A stretch of 19,927 bases of DNA, from contig JAZDJN010000050.1 in assembly GCA_043803945.1 (NCBI GenBank), forward strand, positions 1 to 19,927, written 5' to 3'. Under the pieces are notes generated by a model. The model saw nothing but the letters and a program-made list of their open reading frames with translations. It was not told the DNA's origin and searched no databases. Position numbers and translations under genes: made by a program. Numbering within the stretch: position 1 is the stretch's first letter; the number at the start of each line of letters is the position of its first letter. Of this stretch, positions 3 through 17,423 are shown piece by piece. The stretch comes from a bacterium (GTDB taxonomy: Bacteria; Bacteroidota; Ignavibacteria; UBA10030).

Positions 3-875
3 TTTTTTAACTCCCTGTTTGTGTTCTTGGCGCTGTGGTTTTTGGTTGGCGGGGGCCCCCCAAACCCCCACGACCGTACCATTTTTCAGTTTATAGGTAA
101 CGAGTTCTTTTGGATTGATACCGTCGGGGTTCATAATCCCGCCGCGCGAATCACACGCTGCAACGAGTGTCCCTCCGCCGAGCAATTCCTGGTGCAGATA
201 CGCCGCTCGTTGCCCGGCATTTCCGAATCCCTGAATGGCGTATGTCCCGTGGGCATTGACACCTAACACTTTGCATGCCTCCCGTACGGTGATCACGCCA
301 CCCCGTGCGGTTGCGTCGCGGCGTCCCTCCGTTCCGCCAATCTGCTGCGGTTTATCGGTGAGAACACCCGGATGATGATAACCCATGATTGTCTCATATT
401 CATCCATCATCCATGCCATTGTTTGCGGATTGGTATAGACATCCGGGGCCGGAATGTCCTTATCAACCCCAATCGAACGGGCAAGAGCACGGACATAGGC
501 CCGTGAGACATTCTCGAGCTCACGATTCGACATCGTCCGTGGATCGCACACTACACCTCCTTTGCCTCCACCCAGGGGAAGATCCACAACGGATGTTTTC
601 CACGCCATCCATCCGGCGAGTGCCCGAATGGTATCGACGGTTTCGTCGGGATGAAACCGTATTCCCCCTTTCGCCGGCCCGCGTGCATAGTTGTACTGAA
701 TGCGATACCCATGGAAGATTTTTACCTCTCCATTATCCATCCGTACCGGCATAGTAAATTTCAATTCCTTTTGAGGCCAGAGCAGCAGCGCAATCGTGGC
801 AGCATCAAGATTGAGGATTTTAGCGGCTTCCGTTACCTGTTGTTGAAGGACATGAAATGAATTGTACGAACCCAT
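3..875 (-). CDS. gdh: Glu/Leu/Phe/Val dehydrogenase, family-II (Thermotoga/archaeal-like) glutamate dehydrogenase; 3'-partial, runs off the window edge; absent from the ORF track
   Basis: Manual translation from ATG at 875 (RBS AAGGA just upstream) gives MGSYNSFHVLQQQ...GYRIQYNYARGPAKGGIRFHP...WMAWKTSVVDLPLGGGKGG...DIPAPDVYTNPQTMAWMMDEY...GGTEGRRDATARG...AIQGFGNAG...ACDSRGG, with no stop before base 1. GDH similarity decays in the last ~70 nt. Confidence 0.95.
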   Translation of the reverse strand, partial: MGSYNSFHVLQQQVTEAAKILNLDAATIALLLWPQKELKFTMPVRMDNGEVKIFHGYRIQYNYARGPAKGGIRFHPDETVDTIRALAGWMAWKTSVVDLPLGGGKGGVVCDPRTMSNRELENVSRAYVRALARSIGVDKDIPAPDVYTNPQTMAWMMDEYETIMGYHHPGVLTDKPQQIGGTEGRRDATARGGVITVREACKVLGVNAHGTYAIQGFGNAGQRAAYLHQELLGGGTLVAACDSRGGIMNPDGINPKELVTYKLKNGTVVGVWGAPANQKPQRQEHKQGVKK

Positions 876-879
876 ACGA

Positions 880-1071
880 TTATTCCTTCGGCGGGTGTGG
901 TGAATGGTTTTCAGTTTCATCGTCTTCGCGCTTATCAAGAATAATGCGGTACCAGCAGTTCTTGCACATCAGCGCCCGATCGACGCTCAACAATACCTGC
1001 TGCCAGGGACTGAGTTTCTGGCCACAGTGCGGACAGGTATCGATGAGGCTTTCCGATTTTTCTTTATTCAC
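880..1071 (-). CDS. Small zinc-ribbon-like protein (CPHC-x19-CKNC), 63 aa
   Basis: Two CxxC pairs. The GTG start overlaps the upstream stop (GTGAATAA) and its own stop lies 4 nt before the gdh ATG, so it fills the gap exactly, as expected for translational coupling. Confidence 0.8.
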   Translation of the reverse strand: MNKEKSESLIDTCPHCGQKLSPWQQVLLSVDRALMCKNCWYRIILDKREDDETENHSPHPPKE

Positions 1072-4000
1072 TGGGAACCTCAGGTTTCAAAATAATCCCT
1101 CTGCTCTGATGCCCATTTATTTTGATCGTGAGCGGCTTGGTGAAGTGAAACAGTTTTGTAAATGTTTTCATTGCTTCCGGTGTCTGTTGCAAGATCCATT
1201 CCCAATCAAGAAATCCTTGCTGATGCTGCTCATTGATGGTAAAGTATCCTACCATGAAAGAAGTAATATTTTGGAAGAAATGCGAGCCCTGCGATGGTGT
1301 TACCGACATTTCCTTGAATCCGGTCTCGATGATAGCTTTGGCGCCGGCGATCTGTTCCCACGTTACCGGTATGCCCAGCCACGGGTCAAGCGAGCCCCAG
1401 CGGCCTACCCCAATGAGCAGGTAAGGCCGCTGTTCGCTGATTAATTTTGTATTGAATGCCGCAATTTCCTTGGCAACTTCACGGCTCCGAGAGCGATCAA
1501 AAAGATGGTAGTCCACGACGACAACATCCCTGATCCCATCGATGAGTCCATGACCGAGTACCTGATTGCTTTCGCACAGAAGTTTAGAAGTGTCCTGAAG
1601 ATCGAACGTCAGTTCTTCAGGCTCGCGATGCACAACGAGCGGGCGCATTTGTAGCAAGGCAAATTCGTGCGGCTTCTTCGGCATAAAATTGAGATTCATC
1701 GCAAACTCGATCTCCACCGGAGTCCCCATTCCCCAGCTTCCCATATCGAGTAAAAGCTCAATAATCTGAGGAAGTGGGGTAAGGCGGTTCCTGAGAATGG
1801 GATTGAAGGTCACCACACGAATTCCGCTTCGTGCTATTCCGTCATAGATGGCATCATTCTCCGTTGAATACGTTGATCCGACATAATGCAGCGAGCCATC
1901 CCGCTCGGCGACATCGAGACTATGCAACTGCACCATCATATCTTGCGTCTCTGTGCCAAAATCGGAGTTTGCATCGAGCTCGAGTGAAAAGAAGGAGCGC
2001 TGCGAGCTGTTCATCGTCTCCTTGACCGAATAGAATTGGAGAACATCGGCAGGATATTTCGGACAGAACCGGACCGTATTGCCCCCGTCGACAACAGTTT
2101 TCCCAAGGCCCAGAGCAACTGCCACGGTTCCATCGGATGGCTTCTGGGGTGCAATAGTATAGAAGTTATACGACTTTGCTACGCCGGCGATGTCGGGGTA
2201 GAAACGGTTCTCATGGGCCCTCCCAGCCAGCCGCTGAATAATCACCGCCATCTTTTCCTCTTCAAGCCGATAGGAGGTGACACGGATATACTCTTTGGCA
2301 CCCTGGTAGAATGTCGAGGCATAGACACGCTTGACGCTGTTCAAGAGATCATTCAACCGGACAAGAGGATTTGCGTGCAAGTTCGGAATCATATACGTCT
2401 CATACACACCGGCAAAGGGGTGATACTGGGAATCTTCGAGCAAGCTGGAGGAGCGAACCGCCAGTGGTGTATGTATGATCTCAAGAAACGCCGCAAGATC
2501 AGCAAAGATATCAGAAGGAAATTTTTCCGCCTCTAGGAATCGTTTTGTGATCTCACGATCATCCGAACAGTTGAAGGCAAACTCCCGAAGTTGATTCTCT
2601 TCCAGGAATTGATCAAAGACATCGGTACCGATAACCACGGCAGCGGGGACGGAAATATGTATATTCTCAAACCGTTCACGCACATTATAATCATTTACAA
2701 GGGTATTGACAAAACCGAGGCCCCTTGCTTTGCCTCCGAGTGAACCGCCGCCGATCCGGGCAAAACTCGATTCGGGATCGAAGGAATCCTTTGAGAAATC
2801 GGCGATAATACCGCGCTGACGGATGTTGCGATAGTGATGAAGCGAGGTGATGAGATCCTTCCGGAGCGCCTCGATTGTTGGGTAGTCGGTAACCTTTCTT
2901 GGCCTCAGCTTGTCTGCCAACCAGAATTCTGTGCGGGCCTTTAACCAGTTGGAAAAATGATTTCGTTCGGCGTGATACCGGATGCTTGCGGCGGGAACAA
3001 TTCTCAACATCTCCTCAAGGCTTTTCAGATCGTTCGCCCTTCCTGTTTCGGTTCCTTCCGGATCACGGAAAATAAAATCACCAAAACTGAAGTTCCGGAT
3101 CATAAATTGCCGGAGTTCATGGAGGAGCATCGGCGAATCTTTAACGATGAAAGAAGCCCCCACCTCATGAGCCCTCGATTCATTCCCCGACGCATTGGAA
3201 AGAAGAAGAAGAGGAAGATCATCCTGGTTTCGTTTCACCTCGCCTGCAAAGGTAATTCCCGCTTCCGGGTCCTGGGCTCCGTTGTGCGGAAAATCGATAT
3301 CGGAAATTACTCCGAGCATGTACTCGCGATACTTTTCGTAATACTCCCAGGCTTCTTCATAGTTGCTGCAGAGAAGAATTTTAGGGCGTGCCCGCATGCG
3401 AAGAAACTTATGGGTGAGATTGATCCCTTCGGAGATGAGCCTCTGCGATTGTTTGAGGATTTCGGTATAGATGATCGGCAGTATTGAGGAATAATACTTC
3501 ACATTATCCTCGATGACAATCATGGTCTGCACACCGACAATTCTCGTATCGTGTTCAACATTGAGCCGGTCTTCGAGGTACTTTACAATGGCGATGATAA
3601 TGCGGAAGTCCCCCTGCCAGATGAACACCTTATCGAAGACAGAGACATCATGGTTGAGCAGAAGATATTTGAGTTCCCTGTTGTCATGAGCCAGGAGGAT
3701 AATGGGGATATTCAATCCGGATTCTTTGACGAGGCGTGCAAAGTTGATAGCGTGCATATCGTCGATATGCAGAGTGGTGATGATCAGGTCGAAACGGCGT
3801 TCTTCTTTTGCGAGCGTAATCGCTTCCTCACCGCTCGAAACACGGGTAAGTTCAGGGGAGTGGCTCAGATTAAACCCCTGATACTCGTTTCTGATCAACT
3901 CATAGAGCCGGCCATCTTCTTCAAACAGATAGAGATCGTACAGGCTGGAGACCAGCAGAATATTGCTGATGCGGATGCGCATGAGGTTTTGGAATCCCTG

Positions 4001-4075
4001 GAATCGATTGCCGTACCCATGCTCTACCCACAGCGGATCGATTGAACTGATCACCTGTTCGAGTTTATTCTCCAT
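1064..4075 (-). CDS. Receiver-domain / PEP-pyruvate-binding (PPDK_N ATP-grasp) / phospho-His swivel protein, paralog 1 (PEP-synthase-like)
   Basis: PPDK_N motifs GGKARGLG, PLAVRSSSLLEDS..PFAGVYET, MAVIIQ, EIEFA and LLQMRP. Two N-terminal CheY-like folds. C-terminal SQGSHFFQN. Start moved to ATG 4075 (MENKLEQ), which follows a GGAGA RBS; the longer TTG start at 4114 lies inside a terminator hairpin. Confidence 0.9.
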   Translation of the reverse strand: MENKLEQVISSIDPLWVEHGYGNRFQGFQNLMRIRISNILLVSSLYDLYLFEEDGRLYELIRNEYQGFNLSHSPELTRVSSGEEAITLAKEERRFDLIITTLHIDDMHAINFARLVKESGLNIPIILLAHDNRELKYLLLNHDVSVFDKVFIWQGDFRIIIAIVKYLEDRLNVEHDTRIVGVQTMIVIEDNVKYYSSILPIIYTEILKQSQRLISEGINLTHKFLRMRARPKILLCSNYEEAWEYYEKYREYMLGVISDIDFPHNGAQDPEAGITFAGEVKRNQDDLPLLLLSNASGNESRAHEVGASFIVKDSPMLLHELRQFMIRNFSFGDFIFRDPEGTETGRANDLKSLEEMLRIVPAASIRYHAERNHFSNWLKARTEFWLADKLRPRKVTDYPTIEALRKDLITSLHHYRNIRQRGIIADFSKDSFDPESSFARIGGGSLGGKARGLGFVNTLVNDYNVRERFENIHISVPAAVVIGTDVFDQFLEENQLREFAFNCSDDREITKRFLEAEKFPSDIFADLAAFLEIIHTPLAVRSSSLLEDSQYHPFAGVYETYMIPNLHANPLVRLNDLLNSVKRVYASTFYQGAKEYIRVTSYRLEEEKMAVIIQRLAGRAHENRFYPDIAGVAKSYNFYTIAPQKPSDGTVAVALGLGKTVVDGGNTVRFCPKYPADVLQFYSVKETMNSSQRSFFSLELDANSDFGTETQDMMVQLHSLDVAERDGSLHYVGSTYSTENDAIYDGIARSGIRVVTFNPILRNRLTPLPQIIELLLDMGSWGMGTPVEIEFAMNLNFMPKKPHEFALLQMRPLVVHREPEELTFDLQDTSKLLCESNQVLGHGLIDGIRDVVVVDYHLFDRSRSREVAKEIAAFNTKLISEQRPYLLIGVGRWGSLDPWLGIPVTWEQIAGAKAIIETGFKEMSVTPSQGSHFFQNITSFMVGYFTINEQHQQGFLDWEWILQQTPEAMKTFTKLFHFTKPLTIKINGHQSRGIILKPEVPSE

Positions 4076-4092
4076 CAATCTATCTCCAGCAG

Positions 4093-4129
4093 AAAAAAAA
4101 GGGGAAACAGGCAAAGGCTCTGTCTCCCC
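4093..4129 (-). terminator. Intrinsic terminator between gdhA and receiver-dikinase paralog 1
   Basis: Minus strand reads GGGGAGACAG-agcctttgc-CTGTTTCCCC followed by T8. Confidence 0.85.
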
Positions 4130-4153: not shown

Positions 4154-5641
<1,488 letters not shown>

Positions 5642-5891: not shown

Positions 5892-7585
5892 TTACTTCAT
5901 TAAGACCATCTTTCCATTGGCGATCAATGATTTCCCGCCACTCAGAGATTGAGCAACAAAGCGATAGAGATACGTACCGCTGGAGATACTCCTTCCTGCT
6001 GCATCTTTCGCATTCCACACTACGCTATGATAACCGGCTGACTTCTGTGCCTGCACGAGTGTTGTGACCTTGCGTCCCATCAGATCATAGACCTCAAGTG
6101 TAACTAATGCATTCTGAGGCAGTTGATAAGACAGAGTAGTCGTAGGATTGAAGGGATTTGGAAAATTGCCGATTGCAAACTCTGTTGGCAATTGATCAAG
6201 CTTGCCGTTGACAAGTTGACCCGGCATTATTCGTGGTTCGGGAAGCGACACTGTACCTACGACAGTGGCAGGCACATAATCGGACGTTGCGCCTTGATAG
6301 CACGTTCGGACTTTATAAAACACCATCTCATCTGTCGATGTGCCTGTAGCGATGCAATCAGGATCAGTCCAGGAATTTGAATTGGGTTCAGCAGAAGCGA
6401 CTAACTCATATGGCTGGTATTTGACTGTGCGATAGATCTCGTAACCTATACCGCTATTCTGATAGGCAGTCCATTGTATGACATATGTTGACCAACGTTG
6501 GCGACCGCGGTTACGTTTTGTGGAGGAAGGGGTGTTCGTGAGAAACGGGCTGTATATGTATCATTGCCGGTGGGTAAAAATGTATTGTTGCTCATATTTG
6601 TTGATATGGTATTTCCATTTTTCTGCCAATCGATAAATGAGTATTGGATTCCGTCTACCTGTTGCGGCGAAATTGCAGAGACAGCAATGCCATTTCGATA
6701 TCTGACCTTATTGTGGAGGGATGGAGAGACAATAGTACTTTGTGAAACCGATATCTGTCCACCACTAAAATCATTTTCTACCGTTACGTCATATTCTTCT
6801 GAAAAGTTTGCTTGATATGTACCCGCCACCGATGGAATCGATATTCCCATACTCGTTATCAGATTTCCAGGTGTAGACCAATTGTCAAATTTCATCGTAT
6901 ATCCGCTTTGTTGTTGATCATCAATTGCCTGAACAGATACTGGGAATTTATTCCATCTCCAACCGGGCTCGTAGCCCCCAGAGGGGATTGAACGAGTCGT
7001 ACCGTCCACGATCATGTATCCGTCGTTAAAACTATTATTAAGTGTAATCGCATATATTGGATTGTGGATATTTCGAGTATTTGCCTTATCAGTTGTCGTA
7101 AGATAAAGTGTTTGCCCTCTGGAAGCAGGATACATGATAGAAGGAAAATCCAGGTTGCCAATCGTTACATAAAACAAGTGTCCAAATTCATGCAATATTG
7201 TTGTCTGGAGATCATATAAATAAGGATCTCCTGAGAGAGACCACTCTGACCAGTTATTAATATAAATAAGGGAAGACGAAGGTGCATGACCTGGTTCACT
7301 CCCCAGGTCGGTGAATTCAACATAAATGTTAGGTCCCGATTCATTGTACTCCATCGTAATTACATCGGAGGCATTGGTCCATTCCGTAATTGCCCCACGG
7401 ATGAGCTCAAGTATTTCATTCCTTATCGAATTTTGATCATAGATCCAGGTATTTCCAGATTTTATACGAGTTGGTAGTGTTCCCGTGAGAGCGACTCGAT
7501 ATTCTACACCGCGCTGAACCTGTTGGGAGAACACAATATCTATGGAGAATACCATCATCGTGAAAATAAGCAGACTCTTTTTCAT
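5892..7585 (-). pseudogene. Secreted matrixin/metzincin-like peptidase + B-repeat-like domains + FN3 + T9SS-type C-terminal domain, split by one frameshift near 6481-6487
   Basis: Signal peptide MKKSLLIFTMMVFSIDIVFS (ATG 7585, AAAGGA RBS), TILHEFGH and Met-turn SIMYP. PLPPQNVTAVANVGQH continues in another frame as VIQWTAYQNSGIGYEIYRT..WTD..VFYKVRT (FN3-like) into ORF 5892..6326, which ends NFPNPFNPTT..GKMVLMK. The span is 1694 nt, not a multiple of 3. Confidence 0.85.
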
Positions 7586-7747
7586 CAGAATATCCTTTCG
7601 TTGTTGGTTTTTGCTCAAATTATTTTGTACCGTTCACAAGGACAAGGAAGCAAAAGAGCCCTATGTGCGAAAATAGTCGCACGAACCGAGGTTAGTAGCC
7701 TCGATGCATTATTTGCAGGATGACAGGAACCTATTGTTTCTTTTTCT

Positions 7748-7786
7748 CTTAAGGCGGTGGTTGCATCACTGCCTTAAGTTTTTTTT
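7748..7786 (+). terminator. Plus-strand intrinsic terminator (opposite to all flanking genes)
   Basis: CTTAAGGCGGTGGT-TGC-ATCACTGCCTTAAG followed by T8. Two G-U pairs form only in the plus-strand RNA, and the minus-strand version is followed by an A-rich tract. Confidence 0.65.
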
Positions 7787-7809
7787 ATATCTACTTGTGA
7801 CCTCTCTAT

Positions 7810-8877
7810 TTATTTTCCATGTATTACATAGCTTCTCCAACCATCTGTCCCGGCAATGAATACTTCTATTCCATCAGTCCATACTGCCCAGAAATCTCCC
7901 ATGCTCTGAAGGTGTTCATATCTAAACCAATCTCTTCCGTTAAAGTGATAGGCTTGCCCGCCTCCACCAACTGCTAAGAAATTATCTCCACTCGTTCCGC
8001 CAATATCTATAAAGAATTTTTCTCCCTCCCGATAGTGTATTCTTTCCCAAACACTTCCTGTGTATCTATAAATACCGACTCCACAGGAATAGAGCTTACC
8101 ATCAAGGAATAATAATTTTGCCGTTCCAAATTTATAATCGATCTGGTTGTAGACAAGTGTAAACGAGTCGACGATTAGCCAATTTTCTCCATTCCACTTA
8201 TAAATGGAATGATAGGAGGTATCTTCTATACCTACATCTTTCTTATAGCATAAGGCATATACAGCTTGTGGTGAGATTCCTACAATATCATTAATATGAT
8301 CGATGTTGGCACCTATGGTAGCATTCCGCCAGTTTATCCCATCGTAATGGAAAAGTGTAGGTCCACTTCCTCCAACCCAGATATCATTCGTCGACGCTCC
8401 CCAGAGAGCAGTCAAGATTCGTCCGCCAGGAGTTACCATCTCTCGCCATGAGACCCCATCATAATTCATAATGAAACTGCTATCGATAAAGGTCGGTGGA
8501 GGATTAGGATTATAATCTGATTTTGAACCAATGATGAAGACATTCTTGGAATTGAAGCCAAATATTTTTCTTAAACTTACTGATCCTTTGATTTGACCCC
8601 CGTCAATTATGTGGTAGTTTACATTACTCCAGGACTTCCCATTATAATGAAACACGCAACGACCACCAGATGCATGGCCAGCCGCATAAACATCAGAGGC
8701 TGATGTGCCCCAGATATCGTACAACACTAACTGATCAATATTATTCCCGTTGAGGGTATCTATTGTCCAAGAGAGTGCACGTAAATCCTTTACCTTCGTG
8801 ACTGGTTCAGTGGAGTGTTTGCAGGATAGGCAGGTCAGAAGCAGGAAAGAAAAGAAGAGAAAAGTAGTATTTTTCAT
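7810..8877 (-). CDS. Lipoprotein with repeated beta-propeller blades (function unknown)
   Basis: MKN + hydrophobic stretch + lipobox CLS|C. Repeats of the form L..IWG.S..DVYAAG...FHY.G..W occur about 6-7 times. Visibly AT-richer than the gdh genes. Confidence 0.85.
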   Translation of the reverse strand: MKNTTFLFFSFLLLTCLSCKHSTEPVTKVKDLRALSWTIDTLNGNNIDQLVLYDIWGTSASDVYAAGHASGGRCVFHYNGKSWSNVNYHIIDGGQIKGSVSLRKIFGFNSKNVFIIGSKSDYNPNPPPTFIDSSFIMNYDGVSWREMVTPGGRILTALWGASTNDIWVGGSGPTLFHYDGINWRNATIGANIDHINDIVGISPQAVYALCYKKDVGIEDTSYHSIYKWNGENWLIVDSFTLVYNQIDYKFGTAKLLFLDGKLYSCGVGIYRYTGSVWERIHYREGEKFFIDIGGTSGDNFLAVGGGGQAYHFNGRDWFRYEHLQSMGDFWAVWTDGIEVFIAGTDGWRSYVIHGK

Positions 8878-8960
8878 AGACCTGTTCGTATAAAAAGACG
8901 ACTGTTCAAGTATGCACCTTCAACGAAGCTGCTCCTCTTCACAGGCACTTCTTTTTCACG

Positions 8961-9237
8961 GAGATCGAACGGTTCACAACCTCACATACAGTGCACTGCT
9001 ACAATATGAAAAAAAAACGAAGTCAAGGTTTTTTTCATTCATGATTGTGAAACTTGATTGCTGTAAGTCTTCTCAATGCGTGCTGTGGCAAAATACCAAT
9101 GTGAGAAGAGAGACGAGAGATGTGAGATGAAAGTACCAGATTGCAGGAGACAGACTGAAGACAACAGAGAAAAGGAACAAAGCGCCGAACCGTTCACTCA
9201 GACCAGGATTACACATTGAAGTGAACGGTTCGATCTC
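8961..9237. repeat. Segment bounded by 17-bp inverted repeats, with internal 7-mer tandem repeats (MITE-like)
   Basis: GAGATCGAACGGTTCAC (8961-8977) matches the reverse complement of GTGAACGGTTCGATCTC (9221-9237) with 1 mismatch. A third copy, CGAACCGTTCACT, is at 9186-9198. GWGAGAN x4 at 9101-9128. Confidence 0.45.
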
Positions 9238-9248
9238 AAGCTTTTAGA

Positions 9249-9292
9249 ACCTTCGGAAGGTCTGTGGATTTATCTGGTAATCCTTCCGAAGG
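9249..9292. repeat. REP-like pair of short palindromes just downstream of paralog 2
   Basis: ACCTTCGGAAGGT ... CCTTCCGAAGG; each unit is nearly self-complementary and the two are inverted copies of each other. Confidence 0.55.
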
Positions 9293-9322
9293 GCGCTCAG
9301 GCTCGATGCAATGAATTGGCAT

Positions 9323-12307
9323 CTATTTTCTCCCCGGTTTCAGGATCACACCCTTATTTTTATGTCCATTGATCTTTGCAATCAAAGGAGTATCGAACCG
9401 TAAATGACGCACATATTTGTATTCCTCGAGCGGTCGCTGCTCGCGCAGCCATTCCCAGTCGATGAATCCCTCATGATGCATCACACTGACGGTGAAATAG
9501 CCGACCCGGAAGGAGGTGATATTCTGGAAGAAATGAGAACCCTGGGAAGGGGTGACATCGATATCCCTGAAACCAGTTTCGACGATAACACGTGCACCGG
9601 AGATTTGGTCCCACGAGACCGGTATACCGAGCCATGGATCGAGACTGCCCCATCGGCCAACACCGATTAAAAGGTACGGCCTCCGGTCGTCCACGAGTTT
9701 TGAATTGAGCACACTGACCTCATACGCTGCTTCAACGCTGCGACCGCGATCATAGCAATCAATATCGACATAGACGATGTCATACATGTCCTGGATAACT
9801 CCATTCCCGAGAACCTGTTGGCTCTGACAGATGAGATCCTCCACCATCACTTTTTCCACATCCAACTCCTCCAGTTCGAGACTCAGAACAAGGGGGCGGA
9901 TTTGAAGCATGGCGAATTCTTTCGGCAAGACAGGAGGAACATTCATATTCACTGCAAACTCAACTTCAATGTGAGTACCCATACCCCACGAGCCCATCTC
10001 AAGGATGAGATCCAGGATCTCGGGAAGCGGGAAGATCTTATGTTTCAAGACAGGAGCGAACGTCACCACACGTTTTCCCATACGAGAAACGCCATCGTAG
10101 ACCGCTTCATCTTCCGGCGAGTAGGTGGATCCCACGTAGTATATGGTATTATCCTCCTCCGCTTTCATCAGTGTGTACCGCTTCACAAGCTCTTCTGGAT
10201 TCAGATGGTAGCGATGATCCACTTTCGCCGTTAAGTCGAGAGCAAGAAATTCCTGCTGTGCATTCCGAATAGTTTCTGTGGTTGAAAAGAATTGAAGAAG
10301 ATGGCGCGGATATTTCGGACAGAAACGAACTGTATTCCCTCCCTCAACCACGGTCTTTCCCAAACCAAGTGCCACCAGGGCAATCCCATCCTCCGACTTC
10401 TGCGGAGGAACGGGATAAAAGTTATACGACTTTGCAACTCCGGCAAACTCGGGATAGAATCGATTGTGGTGATTCGAACCAACCATCCGTTGAATGATCA
10501 CCGCCATTTTTTCTTCTTCAAGCCGATAGGGTGTGGCTTTCATGTAATCTCGCGCCTGTCGGGAATATGTCGAGGCGTACACAAGTTTCACGCTGTCAAG
10601 CAATTCCTGCATCCGGACATCGATATCGGGATCGTTGTTCGGAATCATGAACGTCTCGTACACACCGGCGAAGGGCTGGTATTGTGAATCTTCCAGCAGG
10701 CTCGATGAACGGACCGCAAGAGGGAAGGTGATGATCTCCAGAAATTCTCTCAGTTTCACCAGCACCTCAGGAGGAAAATACTGGGCGTCGAGAAATCGGG
10801 CCTTCAACTCCGTATCGTCATTTGCCTGAAGGACGTAATTGTCGAGCTTATTCTCTTTGAGAAATCTGTCAAACACATCGGTCGCAATCACGACCGCAGA
10901 GGGGACACTAATCTCGACCCCTTCAAATCTATCTCTGACACTGTAGTTATTAATGAGCGTATTGACAAAGCCAAGGCCGCGGGCTTTTCCACCAATCGAT
11001 CCCGTACCAATGCGGGCCAGGCTGTTATGCGGTTCAAACGATTCTTTCGTAAAGTCGGTAATAACGCCACGCTGCCGGCCTTCCCGATATACGCGAATCG
11101 AATCCAGCAATTCTCTTCGAAGCTCATAGACGGAGGCAAAGTCTTCAACCTTGTGCGGCCGCAATCGATGGGCGAGCCAGAACTCCGTTCGGGCTTTTAA
11201 CCAGTTGGAGAAGTGATTCCGCTCAGCATGGTAGCGTATCGATTCATCTGGAACGACCCGTAATTGTTCCTCCAGCGTGATCAGATTTGTCGCTCTCCCA
11301 ACCTCCGAACCGTCGGTCAGGCGAAAGATAAAATCACCGAAGCCGAAGTTGTTCATCACATAGGCACTCAGTTCATGGAGCAGGCGCGGCGATCCCTTTT
11401 GCAGAAAGGCCGTTCCGAATTCACGGGCAAGCTCTGCCGCTTCGACATTACTCGACTGCAGCAGGAATGGAATGTCTTCCCTCTGTTTACGAACAGCACG
11501 TGCAAACGCGAAACCAGCCTCAGGATCCTTCACACCATTGTGCAAAAAATTGATATCGGAGATGATGCCGAGGACATAGTTCTCATGCTTTTCAAAATAG
11601 GACCATGCTTCTTCGTACGTTGAACAGAGAAGGATTTTCGGCCGTGCACGCATTCGGAGAAACCGGTGTGTGAGATTAATCCCTTCGGAAATCAACCGGC
11701 GCGATTGATTGAAGAGTTCGGTATATAGTAATGGGAGGTAGGAAGAGTAGAACGTCACATCATCTTCGACAAGGATGATGCATTGAACACCGACATTTTT
11801 CGTATCGCTCTCGACGTTCAGTTTGTCCTCAATATACTTGATCATGGCAACAAGCAAACGATAGTCGCCATGCCAGATAAAAATACGATCGAACATCGAA
11901 GTGTCCGAACTGGTTGTCAGTTCCAGGCGCTCACGATTGTCATACGCCAGCAAGAGAATTGGCGTTTCGATTCCCATGCTCTTGACGCGTTGGGCAAACC
12001 GAATCACATGCATATCCTCGATATGCAACGTTGTGATGATAAGGTCGAAATGTTCTCCCGCTGCGAGCAGCTCGAATGCTTCATCGCCGCTTGTGACATG
12101 GGTAATTTCGGGCGGGTGACTGAGGTTGAGAACCTGGAACTCCGAACGGATCAACTCATAGAGCTGGCCATCTTCCTCAAAAAGATACTGATCGTACAGG
12201 CTTGCCACCAACAGAATGTCGCGCACCTTATACCGCATTAATTTCTGAAACGATTTAATGCGGCTTCCATACACATCTTCAAGGTTTAGTTGATCAAGAC
12301 GTTCCAT
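9323..12307 (-). CDS. Receiver-domain / PPDK_N ATP-grasp / phospho-His swivel protein, paralog 2
   Basis: Collinear with 1064..4075 over the whole length: GGKARGLG, PLAVRSSSLLEDSQYQPFAGVYET, HAERNHFSNWLKARTEF, GRWGSLDPWLGIPV and SQGSHFFQNITSF. Confidence 0.92.
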   Translation of the reverse strand: MERLDQLNLEDVYGSRIKSFQKLMRYKVRDILLVASLYDQYLFEEDGQLYELIRSEFQVLNLSHPPEITHVTSGDEAFELLAAGEHFDLIITTLHIEDMHVIRFAQRVKSMGIETPILLLAYDNRERLELTTSSDTSMFDRIFIWHGDYRLLVAMIKYIEDKLNVESDTKNVGVQCIILVEDDVTFYSSYLPLLYTELFNQSRRLISEGINLTHRFLRMRARPKILLCSTYEEAWSYFEKHENYVLGIISDINFLHNGVKDPEAGFAFARAVRKQREDIPFLLQSSNVEAAELAREFGTAFLQKGSPRLLHELSAYVMNNFGFGDFIFRLTDGSEVGRATNLITLEEQLRVVPDESIRYHAERNHFSNWLKARTEFWLAHRLRPHKVEDFASVYELRRELLDSIRVYREGRQRGVITDFTKESFEPHNSLARIGTGSIGGKARGLGFVNTLINNYSVRDRFEGVEISVPSAVVIATDVFDRFLKENKLDNYVLQANDDTELKARFLDAQYFPPEVLVKLREFLEIITFPLAVRSSSLLEDSQYQPFAGVYETFMIPNNDPDIDVRMQELLDSVKLVYASTYSRQARDYMKATPYRLEEEKMAVIIQRMVGSNHHNRFYPEFAGVAKSYNFYPVPPQKSEDGIALVALGLGKTVVEGGNTVRFCPKYPRHLLQFFSTTETIRNAQQEFLALDLTAKVDHRYHLNPEELVKRYTLMKAEEDNTIYYVGSTYSPEDEAVYDGVSRMGKRVVTFAPVLKHKIFPLPEILDLILEMGSWGMGTHIEVEFAVNMNVPPVLPKEFAMLQIRPLVLSLELEELDVEKVMVEDLICQSQQVLGNGVIQDMYDIVYVDIDCYDRGRSVEAAYEVSVLNSKLVDDRRPYLLIGVGRWGSLDPWLGIPVSWDQISGARVIVETGFRDIDVTPSQGSHFFQNITSFRVGYFTVSVMHHEGFIDWEWLREQRPLEEYKYVRHLRFDTPLIAKINGHKNKGVILKPGRK

Positions 12308-12381
12308 AGAGTATCATTTTAGAAGATTCGTATTTACTCAATATGTCTAATTATGTATTGCATGTCTCATTTTTTTCTCCA

Positions 12382-12506
12382 CCCCCCCAAAGGGGGCCGG
12401 CCCGCTCCACCGAAGCGGGAGCGAGGCTAGAGGGAGATTTCGAAGATTTTCTTTCTCTTGAGTAAAACCAAATCCCCCTTCCTCCCTTTATGAAAGGGGG
12501 AAATTT
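12382..12506. repeat. REP-like composite of CCCCC..AAAGGGGG hairpins
   Basis: CCCCCCCAAAGGGGG, CCCGCT..AGCGGG, AGGGGAGATTT..AAATCCCCCT and CCCTTTATGAAAGGG nested inverted repeats in intergenic DNA. Confidence 0.5.
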
Positions 12507-12861: not shown

Positions 12862-14202
12862 TTATACCAAACCCTGCTCCAGCATAGCGTTGGCAACCTT
12901 TAAAAAGCCGCCAATATTTGCACCAACCACATAATTCCCCGGCTGACCGAATCGTTCCGCGGTCTGGACACAGGTCTTATGAATGTTGATCATAATCTGA
13001 TGCAAACGCTGATCGACCTCTTCCCTCGGCCAGGGGAGGCGCATGCTGTTCTGACTCATCTCCAGTCCAGACGTAGCAACACCACCGGCATTGGATGCCT
13101 TGCCGGGAGCGAAAAGGATTCCGGCATTGTTGAAGATTTTAAATCCTTCCATCGTGGTCGGCATATTGGCACCTTCGCAGACACACATACAACCATTCTT
13201 GACAAGTTCCTGAGCATCTTGTTCATTCAACTCATTCTGCGTAGCACACGGAAGCGCAATATCGACCTTTACACTCCAAGGTCGTCGATTCGGAACAAAT
13301 TCAGCCTTGAATTTTTCGGCATAGTCTTTCACCCGATCATTTGCACTCGCCCGAAGCTCGAGCATATAGTCAACCTTCTCGCCCGTCACTCCATCTTTAT
13401 CATAGACGAATCCATCTGGTCCGGAGAGAGTTACAACTTTACCGCCGAGCTGGTTCACCTTGAGAACGGCACCCCATGCAACGTTCCCGAATCCGGAAAC
13501 AGCAACAGTTTTTCCCTCAAAGGTTTGCCCCTTGGTCTTGAGCATTTCCTGTGTAAAGTAAACAACACCAAATCCTGTTGCTTCAGGACGGATAAGCGAA
13601 CCACCCCAATTCAATCCTTTACCCGTGAGGACGCCAGTGAATTCTTTGGTAAGGCGTTTGTACTGACCGAAGAGATATCCGATTTCGCGTCCACCGACTC
13701 CGATATCGCCGGCTGGAACATCAATGTCGGCACCAATGTGCCGGTATAACTCCGTCATGAAACTCTGGCAGAAGCGCATCACTTCGTGATCGCTTTTTCC
13801 TTTCGGATCGAAGTCCGATCCACCCTTGCCGCCACCCATAGGAAGTGTGGTGAGACTATTTTTGAAGACCTGTTCGAAGGCAAGGAATTTCAGGATGCTT
13901 AACGTGACCGAGGGGTGAAATCGTAATCCACCTTTGTAGGGGCCGATTGCACTGTTCATCTGAATACGGAATCCACGGTTCACATGGATGTCGCCCTGAT
14001 CATCCATCCAGGGGACACGGAAAATGATTACACGTTCCGGCTCGACGATCCGTTCCAGAATTCGTGCTGCGCGATATTCAGGATGACGCGCAAATACCGG
14101 TTCGAGTGATTCGAAGACTTCTTCTACAGCCTGAAGAAATTCAGGTTCATTTGCATTCTTCGCTTTTACCTGTGCGTATACATTGTTAATATATTCGGAC
14201 AT
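12862..14202 (-). CDS. gdh: Family-I glutamate dehydrogenase with NAD-type (Clostridium symbiosum-like) fingerprint, 446 aa
   Basis: Same catalytic-domain motifs as gdhA. The coenzyme domain reads VSGFGNVAWGA..KVVTLSGPDGFVYD. GAGGA RBS before ATG 14202. Confidence 0.95.
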   Translation of the reverse strand: MSEYINNVYAQVKAKNANEPEFLQAVEEVFESLEPVFARHPEYRAARILERIVEPERVIIFRVPWMDDQGDIHVNRGFRIQMNSAIGPYKGGLRFHPSVTLSILKFLAFEQVFKNSLTTLPMGGGKGGSDFDPKGKSDHEVMRFCQSFMTELYRHIGADIDVPAGDIGVGGREIGYLFGQYKRLTKEFTGVLTGKGLNWGGSLIRPEATGFGVVYFTQEMLKTKGQTFEGKTVAVSGFGNVAWGAVLKVNQLGGKVVTLSGPDGFVYDKDGVTGEKVDYMLELRASANDRVKDYAEKFKAEFVPNRRPWSVKVDIALPCATQNELNEQDAQELVKNGCMCVCEGANMPTTMEGFKIFNNAGILFAPGKASNAGGVATSGLEMSQNSMRLPWPREEVDQRLHQIMINIHKTCVQTAERFGQPGNYVVGANIGGFLKVANAMLEQGLV

Positions 14203-14477: not shown

Positions 14478-14752
14478 TTACTTAATCAAAATGACTTTTT
14501 TAGAAGAGATGTAACGTTGCGTGCTTTCAACCGATTCCGTGAAAAGCCTCACTAAATAGATTCCGCTCGGCTCGCTGTTGGCAACCCAACGCACTTCATA
14601 GTATCCCTGTGAGCGTTCACCATCGATGAGCTCAGCGACCACTTTCCCAAGCATATTAACAACTTCAAGCCTGACCTTGCTCCGTTCCGGAATACCAAAA
14701 CGAATCTTGGTTGATGGATTGAAGGGATTCGGATACGCTTCATGCAAGATGA
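14478..14752 (-). repeat. Copy 1 of a ~275-bp duplicated C-terminal sorting-domain segment
   Basis: Aligns without gaps (offset 3301) to 17779..18053, with long identical runs and mostly synonymous differences. Confidence 0.85.
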
Positions 14753-17423
14753 GGTCATCCGGAACCAGGTTTAAGAACTCCTCGATACCCGTCGGAGTAG
14801 AAGTGTCCACGGTGAAGGCATTTGATAGCGTTCCAGAACCTCCACCGGGCGCTCCGTTTGTCACAACAACAGAACGTGCGCCGGTTGCGGCTGTGGTGGC
14901 AATCGTAATGTTTGCGGTGAGCTGCGTCGGGCTTGTGACAAGAACCTGATTCACCACGATATCCGCGCCAAAGCTTACTGTAGTCATGCCCGTTGCAAAA
15001 TTCGATCCTGTTACAACCACATTCAGTTTGCTGCCGCGTCCAGCTTTTGCAGGTTGAATGCCCACAATACTCGGAAGTGCGTTACCGACAGTAAAGAGAT
15101 TCGATTTCATGACCGTCCCTCCACCAGGGGAGCTATTGATTATCCAAATATCTCTCGCTCCAAGCAAAGCATTCATACTGATTATGATATTAGCCGTCAA
15201 TTGTGTCATGCTATTTATGGAAAGAGAATTTATTGTGATCCCTGCATCTCCTGCAAAGCTCATTGATGTCACACCTGGGAAAAAATTGGATCCGGTCGCA
15301 GTGAGATTCATTGTCTCGCCGCGATTACCGCTCGAGGGTGAAACCGATAGAAATGTAGGCGCCGGATTGGTTATAGAGAATGTTTGCGAGGATACAATAG
15401 AACCCCCACCTGTAGCTACATTCGTAGCCGTAATTGTGCGAGGACCGGTCACCGCCTCATATCCAATCGTGAGATTGGCAGTGAGTTGTGCCGGACTGTT
15501 GACAGTAACGGAATTCACTGTAACGCCGATTCCAAAGTTGATGCTCGTTACCCCCTGGATGAAGTTTGTGCCTGTGATGACAACATCTAATGTCTGTCCC
15601 CTCATACCCGAAGTTGGAGTGAAGCTGGTGATTGCTATTGCTGAGCTGATAGCAAATTCCGAAAGAGGGCGACGCCAGACAGCGCTTCCACCAGTCCCGG
15701 CATAGAGGTTACTTCCACTCACTACCAATGCATTGATCGTCAGATTATTCAATCCGGTGCTTACAGAATACCAATTTGTGCCATTGTTCGTTGAGAGGTA
15801 TACGCCTCCGCTATAAGTTCCGGCAAAGAGATTGGACCCGCTTACTGCGAAGGTCTGGGTCTCACTCGTTGAGACATTTGTCAGTTTGCTCCAACTGATT
15901 CCATCATCCGACGAAGAATAGATCATTCCTGCGCCTAATCCTGCAAATATTTTCCCTTCACACATGCCAAGAGAATAGATGTGTTCCTTCGAGAGATCAC
16001 CTGAAGTAGGCCCCACCCAATTCGCTCCGTCATCTGTTGATCGATAAACACCGCTTCCTGTTCCAACAAACACGATTCCATTTTTTGCTATGAGGCAGTT
16101 AACACTCTTGTTTGTTAAACCGGTATTCATCGGGAGCCAGCTCGCTCCATAATTGTCGGAACGAAAAACTCCTCCTCCGTAAGTTCCAGCAAACAGTTTT
16201 TGACCATTGACTGTAAGCGCTCTAACATCAGATGTTGTCAATCCTGTATTCACAGAATTCCAGGTCGATCCCTTATCATTAGAAAAATACACTCCATTTT
16301 TCGTTCCGATAAAAAACCTGCTATCGCTGATTAATATGCGAGTGATATATATCTCAATACCCGAATTCGCAGGCTCCCAAATTATTCCATCATTTGTCGA
16401 TCTATGGACACCGTCATTGGTGGTGCCTGCATAAATTGTTGTTCCATCGGCAGCTAAAGCTATAACAGTGGAGGCGTTGATCCCATCACTGGCAGAGGTC
16501 CAATTAACGCCATCGTTAGTAGAACGAAATACACCTCGACTCCATGTACCAGCAAAGAGAGCGCCTCCATTGAGAAAGAGGCAAGCGATGGCATTGCTTT
16601 TCAATCCAGAAGTGTACACATCCCAGCTCGATCCATTATTGGTTGTTCGATATACTCCGCCACCCCAACTGCCGACATAGATTATTCCTCCCGAGGCAGT
16701 CATAGAATAAATGCTCTTATTTGGTATCCCTGAATTCACCTCCGACCAGCTTGCTCCATCATCGGTAGAACGGAAAATACCGCCACCCCAGGTCCCGGCA
16801 AAAAGATTTCCCGCAGTGGCAGCGAGACAATACACACTTGTATTAGTCAACCCTGTGCTTTTCGAGACCCAACTTGTGCCGTTATCGGTTGTGCGAAAAA
16901 CGCCATTATAGGTTCCTACGAAAATACTTCCATTGTAGATAGCGAACGAGTATATAATATTATCTGTCACCCCGGTATTTGCCGGACTCCAACTTGCCCC
17001 ATTATCTGTTGAACGAAAAACTCCTCCTCCGTTAGTCCCTGCAAAAAGAAAAGATCCGTTAACAATAAGAGTACGAATGCTGAGATTGGTCAATCCGGAG
17101 TTCGATACAGTCCAATTAGCCCCATTGTCGATAGAGCGAAAAACACCTCCACCATAAGTGCCGGCAATTACATTTGCGCCACTAATGGCAAGAGCATACA
17201 CTCTACTGGATGTCAGTCCTGTGTTTACCGAAATCCATTTTGTGCCATTATCCGAAGACCGAAAGATTCCGCCATGTGTTCCAACAAATAGATTTGAGCC
17301 GCTTACTGCAAAACAATTGATAGGTCCACCTTGCGGTCCACTTGTGGGTATCCACTGGGAGAATGCAAAGGAGGGGCAGATAAGAAAAAACAGTACGATA
17401 CTGAAGCGTGATGAGGTGTGCAT
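14478..17423 (-). CDS. Secreted protein: BNR/Asp-box double beta-propeller (14 blades) + 3 IPT/TIG-like Ig domains + T9SS-type C-terminal domain
   Basis: Signal peptide ending ..AFS|QW. Fourteen ~39-aa repeats of the form FAGTxGGGVFRSxDxGxxW. Three ~94-aa P..G.RG.T....TG.NF..G.T repeats. C-terminus AYPNPFNPST..KKVILIK. Confidence 0.92.
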   Translation of the reverse strand: MHTSSRFSIVLFFLICPSFAFSQWIPTSGPQGGPINCFAVSGSNLFVGTHGGIFRSSDNGTKWISVNTGLTSSRVYALAISGANVIAGTYGGGVFRSIDNGANWTVSNSGLTNLSIRTLIVNGSFLFAGTNGGGVFRSTDNGASWSPANTGVTDNIIYSFAIYNGSIFVGTYNGVFRTTDNGTSWVSKSTGLTNTSVYCLAATAGNLFAGTWGGGIFRSTDDGASWSEVNSGIPNKSIYSMTASGGIIYVGSWGGGVYRTTNNGSSWDVYTSGLKSNAIACLFLNGGALFAGTWSRGVFRSTNDGVNWTSASDGINASTVIALAADGTTIYAGTTNDGVHRSTNDGIIWEPANSGIEIYITRILISDSRFFIGTKNGVYFSNDKGSTWNSVNTGLTTSDVRALTVNGQKLFAGTYGGGVFRSDNYGASWLPMNTGLTNKSVNCLIAKNGIVFVGTGSGVYRSTDDGANWVGPTSGDLSKEHIYSLGMCEGKIFAGLGAGMIYSSSDDGISWSKLTNVSTSETQTFAVSGSNLFAGTYSGGVYLSTNNGTNWYSVSTGLNNLTINALVVSGSNLYAGTGGSAVWRRPLSEFAISSAIAITSFTPTSGMRGQTLDVVITGTNFIQGVTSINFGIGVTVNSVTVNSPAQLTANLTIGYEAVTGPRTITATNVATGGGSIVSSQTFSITNPAPTFLSVSPSSGNRGETMNLTATGSNFFPGVTSMSFAGDAGITINSLSINSMTQLTANIIISMNALLGARDIWIINSSPGGGTVMKSNLFTVGNALPSIVGIQPAKAGRGSKLNVVVTGSNFATGMTTVSFGADIVVNQVLVTSPTQLTANITIATTAATGARSVVVTNGAPGGGSGTLSNAFTVDTSTPTGIEEFLNLVPDDLILHEAYPNPFNPSTKIRFGIPERSKVRLEVVNMLGKVVAELIDGERSQGYYEVRWVANSEPSGIYLVRLFTESVESTQRYISSKKVILIK

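Follow-up and report, generated by a model that had tools for sequence, protein, structure and literature searches.

P0001, a protein encoded on the reverse strand of a 19,927-nucleotide stretch of bacterial DNA (the window, meaning the whole stretch that was analyzed), is probably a signaling enzyme and not a PEP synthase. Two receiver domains precede a PPDK-type ATP-grasp domain, and the C-terminal domain (CTD) that follows carries a near-invariant histidine, H945. The gene is paired with one for glutamate dehydrogenase (GDH), as in many related loci. The reading that we hold, tentatively and with slightly more doubt than confidence, is that P0001 is a receiver-gated, His-dependent autokinase or dikinase acting on or with GDH.

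Domain Organization of P0001

The likely start of P0001 is M14 of its open reading frame; the database copy (P0004) has 1003 aa, and the ESM Atlas entry begins at residue 14. From the N terminus, the protein is composed of a pseudo-receiver, a true receiver, a DUF5752-like linker, a PPDK-type ATP-grasp domain, and the CTD (Table 1). In the first receiver, Ser-Ser stands in place of the acidic pair and Thr in place of the acceptor Asp. The second is, as judged from its residues, a true two-component receiver with D272 as the predicted phospho-acceptor. Among 151 full-length homologs, E202 is retained in 148, D203 in 143, D272 in 146, S306 in 147, and K325 in 149. In having a canonical second receiver and a first one without active-site residues, P0001 resembles response regulators with enzymatic output and pseudo-receivers. 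No description of an ATP-grasp or dikinase-type output of response regulators was found, and PMC12632262 contains none of the terms PPDK, pyruvate, dikinase, or ATP-grasp. An ESM Atlas query with the linker returned a weak lead to DUF5752 alone (0.84). A preliminary description of the window mentions neither the two receiver domains nor the conserved GDH pairing.

Table 1. Features of P0001, its paralog, and the neighboring GDH genes in the window
Feature	Position	Strand	Details
GDH_A, second-type GDH	3..938	-	Cut by window end; starts 125 nt downstream of P0001 gene; Pfam
Receiver/ATP-grasp/CTD gene (P0001)	1064..4075	-	Stop 1064-1066; ORF 1064..4114 opens with TTG at 4114
CTD	1067..1597	-	Residues 840-1016, 177 aa; no Pfam family; modeled three-layer β/β/α
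H945 codon	1280..1282	-	Near-invariant His, N terminus of helix SHFFQNITS
GxGRWG loop	1394..1411	-	G902-G907, after strand YLLIG; kept in 273-275 of 276 homologous domains
ATP-grasp-CTD linker	1598..1627	-	~Residues 830-839; model residues 391-400, pLDDT ~66 vs 87-97 flanking
PPDK_N-type ATP-grasp	1619..2743	-	Residues 458-832; Pfam E 3.8e-38; GGKARG, AVRSSSxxED, EIEFA, LQxRP kept
DUF5752-like linker	2828..3040	-	Residues 359-429; Pfam 23.2 bits vs cutoff 23, borderline
Second receiver domain	3110..3532	-	~Residues 195-335; E202, D203, D272, S306, K325
First receiver-like domain	3620..3985	-	~Residues 44-165; pseudo-receiver; Pfam Response_reg at 88-145
GDH_B	4154..5515	-	453 aa from M37 of listed ORF; conserved type of partner; 78 nt upstream of P0001 gene; Pfam
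Paralog P0002	9323..12307	-	994 aa, 59% identical to P0001, architecture alike; H925 at 9533-9535
GDH_C	12862..14202	-	446 aa, 70% identical to GDH_B; 554 nt upstream of paralog P0002

[quoted passage not shown]

The ATP-grasp domain is matched by PF01326 (PPDK_N) with E values of 3.8e-38 in P0001 and 3.4e-36 in P0002. Its nucleotide/phosphate motifs are invariant across 67 sequences and align to E. coli PpsA in hhalign; the roles of the invariant residues are assigned here from work on PPDK, which we take to apply. The alignment with PpsA covers the ATP-grasp domain and continues just into the first hairpin (PpsA residue 380 at most). In Foldseek searches with a model of the ATP-grasp domain plus CTD, rifampin phosphotransferase (RPH; 5hv3) was the best match at an E value of 9e-14, with HpeI (9goj) at 1e-10. 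[quoted passage not shown] On the modeled structure, the ATP-grasp domain thus appears closest to these three enzymes.

That P0001 is an ordinary PEP synthase or PPDK, which some automatic names suggest, is nonetheless refuted by the domain content, and we give that reading virtually no weight. It can call on the PPDK_N match and on weak, partial matches to NCBIfam PEP synthase models over the ATP-grasp domain only. These matches reach 40-61 bits vs cutoffs of 598-883; for the equivalogs, PEP_synth (TIGR01418) scores 42.7 vs 739.75 and NF004881 61.1 vs 883. PF00391 is absent, and the PEP/pyruvate barrel PF02896 has no Pfam match in P0001 or P0002. From the end of the LLQMRP motif (residues 820-825) to the C terminus there are 191 residues, as against ~280-340 aa for the barrel alone in 12 control proteins with genuine swivel domains. 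The preliminary description had put this tail at ~190 aa, noted the missing TIM barrel, and called a PEP synthase annotation wrong; on all three points it was right.

Conservation and Predicted Structure of the CTD

The CTD of P0001 has no match in Pfam or NCBIfam. Sequence searches of PDB chains, with the whole of P0001 and with a CTD profile, returned matches for the ATP-grasp and receiver domains only, and the look-alikes of the CTD in the ESM Atlas are all fragments, either without a name or labeled “putative PEP synthase.” The preliminary description had proposed that the region is a hidden phosphohistidine swivel domain and had set loss of its His across homologs beforehand as a possible refutation. 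At the H945 column, 274 of 276 domains homologous to the CTD have His; of the other two, one has a gap and one a Pro. Ser or Thr precedes this position in 264 of the 276, and the His is found in both paralogs, as described (H945 in P0001 and H925 in P0002). In this alignment, the conservation of the His, the Ser/Thr, and the GxGRWG loop stands far above chance. Besides H945, the invariant polar residues are R905, D910, E930, S941, N949, and Y957.

The AlphaFold (AF2) model of the CTD is confident (pLDDT 92.6), with a β/β/α layout in which H945 is the second residue of the helix after a parallel strand. A model of the ATP-grasp domain together with the CTD has a pTM of 0.89, which suggests fixed docking and not a free swivel.

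Relation of the CTD to the Phosphohistidine Swivel Domain

The strings that the preliminary description had read as the swivel-domain pattern lie where it placed them, as confirmed by a residue and codon check of both P0001 and P0002. In P0001, these are VLGHGLIDGIRDVVVV (residues 852-867, nt 1514-1561), YLLIG (898-902), AKAIIETG (925-932), SQGSHFFQNITS (941-952), and LTIKINGHQSRG (995-1006). The pattern itself did not hold up. PF00391 matched none of 73 family members, even at E <= 10, and all 12 of the genuine swivel domains from bacteria and archaea that served as controls (E 2.6e-14 to 1.1e-29). With an HMM built from those 12 domains, the CTDs scored a median of -1.5 bits, the same level as shuffled (-1.7) and reversed (-1.6) sequences. 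Alignment of a profile of 73 CTDs to the 12-sequence swivel profile with hhalign gave a probability of 0.38% (E 0.16, 10 columns) without improvement in global mode, and a probability of 0.3% was obtained between E. coli PtsI and the profile of the family. The motif around the catalytic His of swivel domains is T/SxxGGxxxH according to PMC12167813. It is not matched by the CTD, which reads S937-V-T-P-S-Q-G-S-H945-F-F-Q-N, so that positions -5 and -4 are P and S, not GG. The sole part of T/SxxGGxxxH or GGxTS/CHAAI that is common to the CTD is [ST]-H.

A Foldseek search of the CTD against the PDB gave no match at E <= 1e-3, with TM-scores of 0.31-0.39. The list includes LD-carboxypeptidase, RraA, PA domains, the GroEL apical domain, aconitase, and PPDK (2r82 with E 0.03, probability 0.85, and TMq 0.38; 5lu4 with TMq 0.39). 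Nearly all of these we take to be swivelling β/β/α proteins (SCOP fold c.8). The check by AlphaFold and Foldseek thus yielded a confident β/β/α fold and no PDB match at that threshold. The models lend weak support to a swivel fold for the CTD, and the sequence comparisons do not support placing it in PF00391, the family of PEP-utilizers mobile domains. The proposal of a hidden swivel domain therefore survives at the level of fold class, in the AF2 layout and the position of the His, and fails at the level of sequence. We infer that the CTD is a separate sequence family, which is either extremely diverged from the swivel domain or convergent with it.

The likeness to the PF00391 domain extends to its place in the chain, directly after a PPDK_N ATP-grasp domain, and to the modeled β/β/α layers with a leading and a closing β-hairpin. 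In the swivel domain as in the CTD model, a near-invariant His after Ser/Thr lies at the N terminus of a helix. In contrast, PF00391 has 72 positions and the CTD ~177 aa, the extra parts being a 20-residue helix and the GxGRWG loop, and the CTD has neither the GG of T/SxxGGxxxH nor any detectable sequence or profile similarity. It also has far more invariant polar residues than the role of a plain carrier domain needs.

Comparison with Other Dikinases

Analogous to RPH, HpeHI, CreHI, and phenylphosphate synthase, P0001 has a C-terminal His domain after a single linker and no TIM barrel, and the structures that its ATP-grasp domain matches best are those of RPH and HpeI. These enzymes act on acceptors other than pyruvate, a likeness that for P0001 concerns a proposed acceptor. 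PMC12167813 describes RPH and HpeHI as phosphohistidine-dependent and gives RPH-type dikinases a canonical PF00391 domain and, separate from it, a helical domain for substrate binding, neither of which is seen in P0001. Two RPH-like control proteins (L085 and L091) indeed have canonical PF00391 and ~480 aa between the ATP-grasp and His domains, whereas in P0001 nothing intervenes, the PPDK_N match ending at residue 832 and the CTD strands beginning at ~845. P0001 further differs from RPH-type dikinases in the two receiver domains ahead of the enzyme.

Another point of comparison is VadK (Rv1127c), which PMC13400623 describes as a truncated relative of PPDK with an ATP-grasp and a His domain and without the barrel. 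According to the same source, VadK autophosphorylates on His422, a site identified by superposing VadK on PPDK structures, and methylcitrate synthase and dehydratase are recovered with it in pull-downs; VadK is proposed to be an autophosphorylating regulator of metabolic enzymes and not a metabolic dikinase. Compared by architecture and by this description, P0001 shares the ATP-grasp plus His domain arrangement without a PEP/pyruvate barrel. VadK differs in having no receivers and in its methylcitrate-cycle partners, the partner suggested for P0001 by gene context being GDH; as VadK is described there, its His domain also appears to be of a different sequence family from the CTD.

Pairing with Glutamate Dehydrogenase

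In 40 of the 67 related loci with room for it, the next gene upstream encodes GDH in the same orientation, at a distance of no more than 600 nt. GDH occurs anywhere in the fetched stretch in 57 of 79 loci and is absent from it in 22. Judged by the titles of their records, the loci surveyed include Ignavibacteria, Acidobacteriota, Eisenbacteria, Calditrichia, Actinomycetota, Myxococcota, and Planctomycetota. GDH is the sole conserved neighbor: the next commonest neighbor cluster is found in 7 loci, and 4 loci have a gene for a PAS-HisKA_3 kinase in the vicinity. GDH_A, which is 33%–34% identical to GDH_B and GDH_C, represents a type found downstream in 10 related loci. The GDH type also tracks the paralog, with GDH_C-type genes at the four clearly P0002-like loci and GDH_B-type genes at the clearly P0001-like ones. 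The conserved pairing points to GDH as acceptor or partner; what the adjacency of the genes itself indicates is a functional link with GDH, not its status as acceptor or binding partner.

Scans of the window for promoters, terminators, and the sigma-54 consensus gave nothing above the expectation from shuffled sequence, and there is no terminator-like site in the 78 nt that separate GDH_B from the P0001 gene. In a Rosetta-stone search, PPDK_N was present in 4 of 103 long GDH relatives, each of which lacks part of GDH or of the ATP-grasp/CTD unit, and these four fusions cannot be told from gene-calling or assembly artifacts of adjacent genes. In the least damaged of them (P0360), a complete family protein directly follows the GDH C terminus. 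A 1302-aa GDH fusion ORF in locus L021 was rejected as an out-of-frame ORF in DNA of 70% GC. Complex prediction for ATP-grasp plus CTD with GDH_B (score 0.01, mark 0.32) gives no answer and counts neither way. In the literature outside subscription journals, no paper was found on the P0001 family, DUF5752, or a dikinase-GDH gene pair.

Proposed Function and Alternatives

In the proposed mechanism, the ATP-grasp domain would phosphorylate H945 from ATP, at the N terminus of a CTD helix beside the GxGRWG loop, and the CTD would fill the role that the phosphohistidine swivel domain has in PPDK, PEP synthase, and RPH. Some relatives are receiver-less proteins of 586 aa that consist of ATP-grasp and CTD alone, judged to be complete by their N-terminal Met and domain layout. 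Their occurrence indicates that ATP-grasp plus CTD is the working unit. Because there is no separate acceptor-binding domain, even in these short forms, the phosphohistidine may either be passed to a docking macromolecule or itself be the signal. The partner would most likely be the 453-aa hexameric-type GDH encoded upstream, and phosphorylation of the receiver would gate post-translational control of glutamate/2-oxoglutarate/ammonium flux. By analogy, this logic would resemble that reported for VadK. A stronger version, in which the whole family is an unrecognized class of signaling kinase, an ATP-grasp autokinase gated by a receiver, whose own phosphohistidine domain lies outside PF00391 and which directly controls hexameric GDH, is doubtful; such control would take the form of phosphorylation of GDH or phospho-dependent binding.

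The CTD might instead bind the acceptor or be catalytic, with the ATP-grasp domain taking as its direct substrate a small molecule bound there, such as glutamate, 2-oxoglutarate, or a metabolite related to them. H945 would then act as general base or as ligand, the situation in ATP-grasp ligases and kinases. The failure of the CTD in every swivel-family sequence test fits this idea, as do the dense invariant polar set (R905, D910, E930, S941, H945, N949, and Y957) with its glycine-rich loop, the fixed interface suggested by the pTM of the two-domain model, and the lack of any other acceptor-binding domain in the 586-aa forms. A shared metabolite would be equally compatible with the GDH link. 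However, a His at a helix N terminus after Ser/Thr has the geometry of a carrier, and two receivers in a protein of 1000 aa better suit signaling than metabolism. In addition, to our knowledge all characterized enzymes that the PPDK_N-type ATP-grasp domain of P0001 matches in structure work via phosphohistidine. We regard direct action on a metabolite as rather unlikely.

More improbable is a phosphorelay driven by the ATP-grasp domain, from phosphorylated H945 to D272 of its own or a partner molecule's receiver, which would make P0001 an unorthodox hybrid histidine kinase with phospho-dependent GDH interaction as its output. An invariant His and a fully canonical receiver do occur within one chain, some database records say “histidine kinase” (a probably automatic name), and VadK is described as a histidine kinase in function in PMC13400623. 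Nevertheless, the His is kept in receiver-less and in tandem (1500-1700-aa) forms, which argues that the core module needs no receiver in cis, and the PAS-HisKA_3 gene near four loci fits a receiver that takes its input from an ordinary kinase. Nor do we know of a swivel-type His that serves as phosphoryl donor to the Asp of a receiver. In another reading, P0001 would be a scaffold or pseudoenzyme without catalysis, its regulation of GDH being a matter of binding alone. This would account for the pseudo-receiver, and the conserved GDH adjacency does not require catalysis, yet neither the nucleotide/phosphate motifs of the ATP-grasp domain nor the His of the CTD vary among sequences down to 36%–40% identity, which is unexpected in a dead enzyme and makes this reading very improbable.

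Significance and Distribution of the Family

Carbon and nitrogen metabolism meet at GDH, and we know of post-translational regulators of the bacterial enzyme in few lineages only. If the CTD is a His carrier, the role of the swivel domain would be filled by a second sequence family, independent of the first. The 2026 idea drawn from VadK, that truncated dikinases are regulatory kinases, would then reach two-component signaling and GDH, and a systematic misannotation would be corrected. If the family consists of signaling kinases that control GDH directly, the Ignavibacteria, the Acidobacteriota, and a number of further phyla would regulate a node of their nitrogen and carbon metabolism, GDH, at the post-translational level. 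Used as a query, the CTD retrieved 6515 database clusters (1485 representatives at 50% identity), and the P0001 family spans many phyla. Its members carry inconsistent names, among them “histidine kinase,” “CheY-like chemotaxis protein,” and “PEP/pyruvate-binding domain-containing protein.”

Domain Organization of P0001

P0001, the protein under study, combines an intact PPDK-type ATP-grasp, a canonical receiver and a compact C-terminal domain (CTD) with an invariant His that is predicted to cap a helix. Its probable start is M14 at 4075, and the database copy has 1003 aa. Pfam assigns PPDK_N (PPDK/PEP-synthase ATP-grasp) to residues 458–832 (E = 3.8e-38), a receiver to residues 88–145 and, at the borderline, DUF5752 (23.2 bits; cutoff, 23), a region in which the consensus GFGDFxFR...NxFSxWLxARxEFxLA is kept across the P0001 family. 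The LLQMRP motif ends at residue 825, leaving 191 residues; the last 180 have no Pfam match, neither to PF00391 (PEP-utilizers mobile domain) nor to PF02896 (PEP-binding barrel). In NCBIfam, the PEP synthase, rifampin phosphotransferase (RPH) and PigC/RedH models cover only part of the ATP-grasp and reach 20–60 bits, where their cutoffs require 500–1350. The name PEP synthase is therefore wrong for P0001, as the preliminary description had argued. Across 67 sequences, the ATP-grasp retains GGKARG, AVRSSSxxED, EIEFA and LQxRP with little or no variation, and these motifs align with their counterparts in E. coli PpsA, so that, by its motifs, the enzyme looks active.

Among 151 aligned full-length homologs, the acidic pair of the first receiver-like domain, where Pfam's top-scoring receiver stretch falls, is replaced by Ser-Ser and the acceptor Asp by Thr. 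In the second receiver, E202, D203, D272, S306 and K325 are each kept in 143 to 149 of the 151. From these counts, a pseudo-receiver and, after it, a receiver of the working type make up the N-terminal half of P0001.

Features of the window (GDH, glutamate dehydrogenase; T9SS, type IX secretion)
Feature	Position	Strand	Remark
GDH_A	3–938	minus	cut by window end
P0001 ORF	1064–4114	minus	1016 codons; CTD at 3′ end
DUF5752 match	2828–3040	minus	P0001 residues 359–429; between receiver and ATP-grasp
Second receiver of P0001	3110–3532	minus	fully canonical
First receiver-like domain of P0001	3620–3985	minus	pseudo-receiver
GDH_B	4154–5515	minus	453 aa from real start
T9SS-tailed protein	5892–6326	minus	
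ORF	6446–7618	minus	390 aa; no Pfam match
ORF	7810–8877	minus	355 aa; no Pfam match
P0002, paralog	9323–12307	minus	994 aa; 59% identity to P0001 over full length
GDH_C	12862–14202	minus	
T9SS-tailed protein	14478–17423	minus	
T9SS-tailed protein	17779–19926	minus	

The C-Terminal Domain Family

With residues 830–1016 as query, 6515 clusters were matched among 6796 candidates of 558–1778 aa; among representatives clustered at 50% identity, which were searched exhaustively, 1485 matched at E ≤ 1e-3, 318 of them at E ≤ 1e-30. Across 73 aligned CTDs (35%–55% identity to the query), G854, G902, G904, R905, G907, G914, P916, S941, G943 and H945 are invariant (P0001 numbering). The conserved His reported in both paralogs is indeed present, as H945 in P0001 (codon 1280–1282) and H925 in P0002 (9533–9535), and its column holds His in 274 of 276 domain matches, the exceptions being one gap and one Pro; the preceding residue is Ser or Thr in 264. 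The CTD is invariably preceded by PPDK_N, in proteins of ∼1000 aa with receivers, in proteins of ∼586 aa that start with Met and contain only the ATP-grasp and CTD, and in proteins of 1500–1700 aa with two such units. By sequence, therefore, ATP-grasp plus CTD is the functional core of the family. The tandem members include P0144, P0145 and P0150; P0145 and the protein at the related locus L042 add a C-terminal nucleotidyltransferase domain (NTP_transf_2).

Comparison with the Phosphohistidine Swivel Domain

The observation behind the proposal of a hidden swivel domain is real, and all six sequence strings quoted for it lie where they had been placed. Read motif by motif, the swivel pattern nevertheless does not rise above chance as sequence. 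PF00391 matched none of 73 CTD family members, even at E ≤ 10, and all 12 genuine controls, at E = 2.6e-14 to 1.1e-29 (E. coli PpsA and PtsI; PEP synthases of a cyanobacterium, an alphaproteobacterium and a haloarchaeon; one PPDK; four enzyme I proteins, including chlamydial and archaeal ones; and two RPH-like proteins). Profile-to-profile alignment of the CTD family with the 12 aligned swivel domains in hhalign gave a probability of 0.38% over 10 columns, with no gain in global mode. An HMM built from these domains had a median of −1.5 bits on 253 CTDs (186 reported), about the same as on shuffled (−1.7; 162 reported) and reversed copies (−1.6; 197 reported), and scored its own training sequences at 125–160 bits. 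The motif T/SxxGGxxxH, as given in PMC12167813, is absent from the CTD, which has Pro-Ser in place of GG.

The AlphaFold2 model of the CTD, calculated from the 73-sequence alignment, is confident (pLDDT 92.6, pTM 0.90). It has a β-hairpin (VLGHG...VVVVDY), a 20-residue helix, strand YLLIGV, the GRWGSLDPWLGIP loop, strand AKAIIET, a 12-residue loop, helix SHFFQNITS with the conserved His as its second residue, strand GYFTIN and a closing hairpin containing LTIKINGHQSRGIIL, in a three-layer β/β/α arrangement. Save for the extra helix and longer loops, this is what we take to be the element order of the phosphohistidine domain. Foldseek found no PDB match to the CTD model at E ≤ 1e-3. The weak list comprises LD-carboxypeptidase/MccF (E = 4e-3, TMq 0.31–0.36), RraA, PA domains, chaperonin apical domains, aconitase and PPDK (2r82, E = 0.03, probability 0.85, TMq 0.38; 5lu4, TMq 0.39), almost all of them presumably swivelling β/β/α proteins of SCOP fold c.8. 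Together, the Pfam, hhalign, chance-control and structure tests leave the swivel claim standing as a resemblance of fold class, which by the model is probably right; homology to PF00391 stays putative, and the CTD does not qualify as a member of that family.

The model of residues 440–1016 (pLDDT 90.9, pTM 0.89) is less confident at the ten residues joining ATP-grasp and CTD (block mean 66). Foldseek places this two-domain model firmly among the His-dependent dikinases: RPH (5hv3, E = 9e-14), HpeI (9goj, E = 1e-10), PEP synthase (2ols, E = 1.6e-10, 595 columns, TMq 0.46) and PPDK (1kbl, 701 columns), with succinyl-CoA synthetase β subunits lower in the list. The long PEP synthase and PPDK alignments extend through the CTD, with TM-scores too low to claim superposition of the domains.

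Conserved Pairing with Glutamate Dehydrogenase

All genes of the region lie on the minus strand, in the 5′-to-3′ order GDH_C, P0002, two ORFs, a small T9SS-tailed protein, GDH_B, P0001 and GDH_A. Three GDH genes thus occur within 20 kb; GDH_B and GDH_C are of one type (70% identical), and GDH_A is of a second, 33%–34% identical to both.

One genome per species was scanned, yielding 623 confirmed relatives, and 79 loci were kept. GDH was detected by tblastn in 57 of these. Where the sequence reaches 1500 nt or more beyond the start of the family gene (67 loci), 40 loci have a GDH as the immediate upstream gene, co-oriented and no more than 600 nt away; in 10 loci, the second GDH type lies directly downstream. 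By record titles, the upstream-GDH loci include Ignavibacteria, Bacteroidota, Eisenbacteria, Calditrichaceae, Thermoleophilia and other Actinomycetota, Thermoanaerobaculia, Terriglobia, Kofleriaceae and Planctomycetaceae; the partner GDH is 71%–89% identical to GDH_B. When all 628 flanking ORFs were clustered, the family itself was found in 77 loci, GDH in 54 and the next cluster in 7, with no other conserved neighbour among them. Sigma-54 activators (7 loci), GltD-like oxidoreductases (6 loci), a PAS histidine kinase (4 loci), peptidases and asparagine synthase occur sporadically as neighbours, in keeping with a nitrogen and amino-acid theme. Clearly P0002-like genes accompany the GDH_C type in 4 of 4 loci and clearly P0001-like genes accompany GDH_B (Spearman 0.58 over 42 loci, rows that share ancestry and are not independent). 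Because GDH type follows family-gene type, the two genes seem to duplicate and travel as a unit.

Mechanistic Considerations

The putatively receiver-gated architecture and the conserved coupling to GDH are more informative than the swivel question. GDH is the conserved partner gene, and the domain content of P0001 includes no acceptor-binding domain of any known kind. We propose that ATP would phosphorylate H945, that this step would be gated by phosphorylation of the receiver and that the resulting phospho-state may act on GDH. The nearest functional precedent is VadK (PMC13400623), which is related to PPDK but lacks the barrel. It undergoes Mg-ATP-dependent autophosphorylation on His422, retrieves methylcitrate synthase and dehydratase in pull-downs and modulates flux. 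In structure, the P0001 model comes closest to RPH and HpeHI, both small-molecule dikinases; unlike P0001, these enzymes bind their substrate on a domain of its own and have a swivel domain of the canonical type, according to the RPH-like controls and PMC12167813.

The main alternative is that the CTD binds the acceptor as a catalytic domain rather than serving as a carrier, for which the many invariant polar residues and the apparently fixed docking to the ATP-grasp in the model both speak. A bolder possibility is a His-to-Asp relay from the CTD onto the protein's own receiver. Neither the P0001 family, the dikinase-GDH pair nor DUF5752 was mentioned in the literature searched, subscription journals lying outside the search.

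Other Features of the Loci

Each of two acidobacterial loci has a long additional family gene convergent to the GDH/receiver-dikinase pair: the tandem gene of L042 (7482–12545, minus) and, in L024, two adjacent family ORFs (7437–12399, minus). Among 103 long GDH relatives, four predicted proteins (P0360, P0364, P0373 and P0376) combine a partial GDH with a partial or whole family member, each truncated in one part; in P0360, the GDH C terminus continues straight into a complete family protein. These fusions may be real or artefacts of adjacent genes. A 1302-codon ORF across GDH and the family gene in L021 (1878–5786) was rejected as an out-of-frame, Arg/Pro/Gly-rich artefact of 70% GC DNA.

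In the window, the 390- and 355-aa ORFs between the two gene pairs have relatives in 0 and 1 of the 79 loci, respectively. Three proteins carry T9SS C-terminal sorting domains, one of them being 981 aa long with BNR/sortilin repeats and three Ig-like repeats, which fits an origin of the window in the Ignavibacteria/Bacteroidota group.
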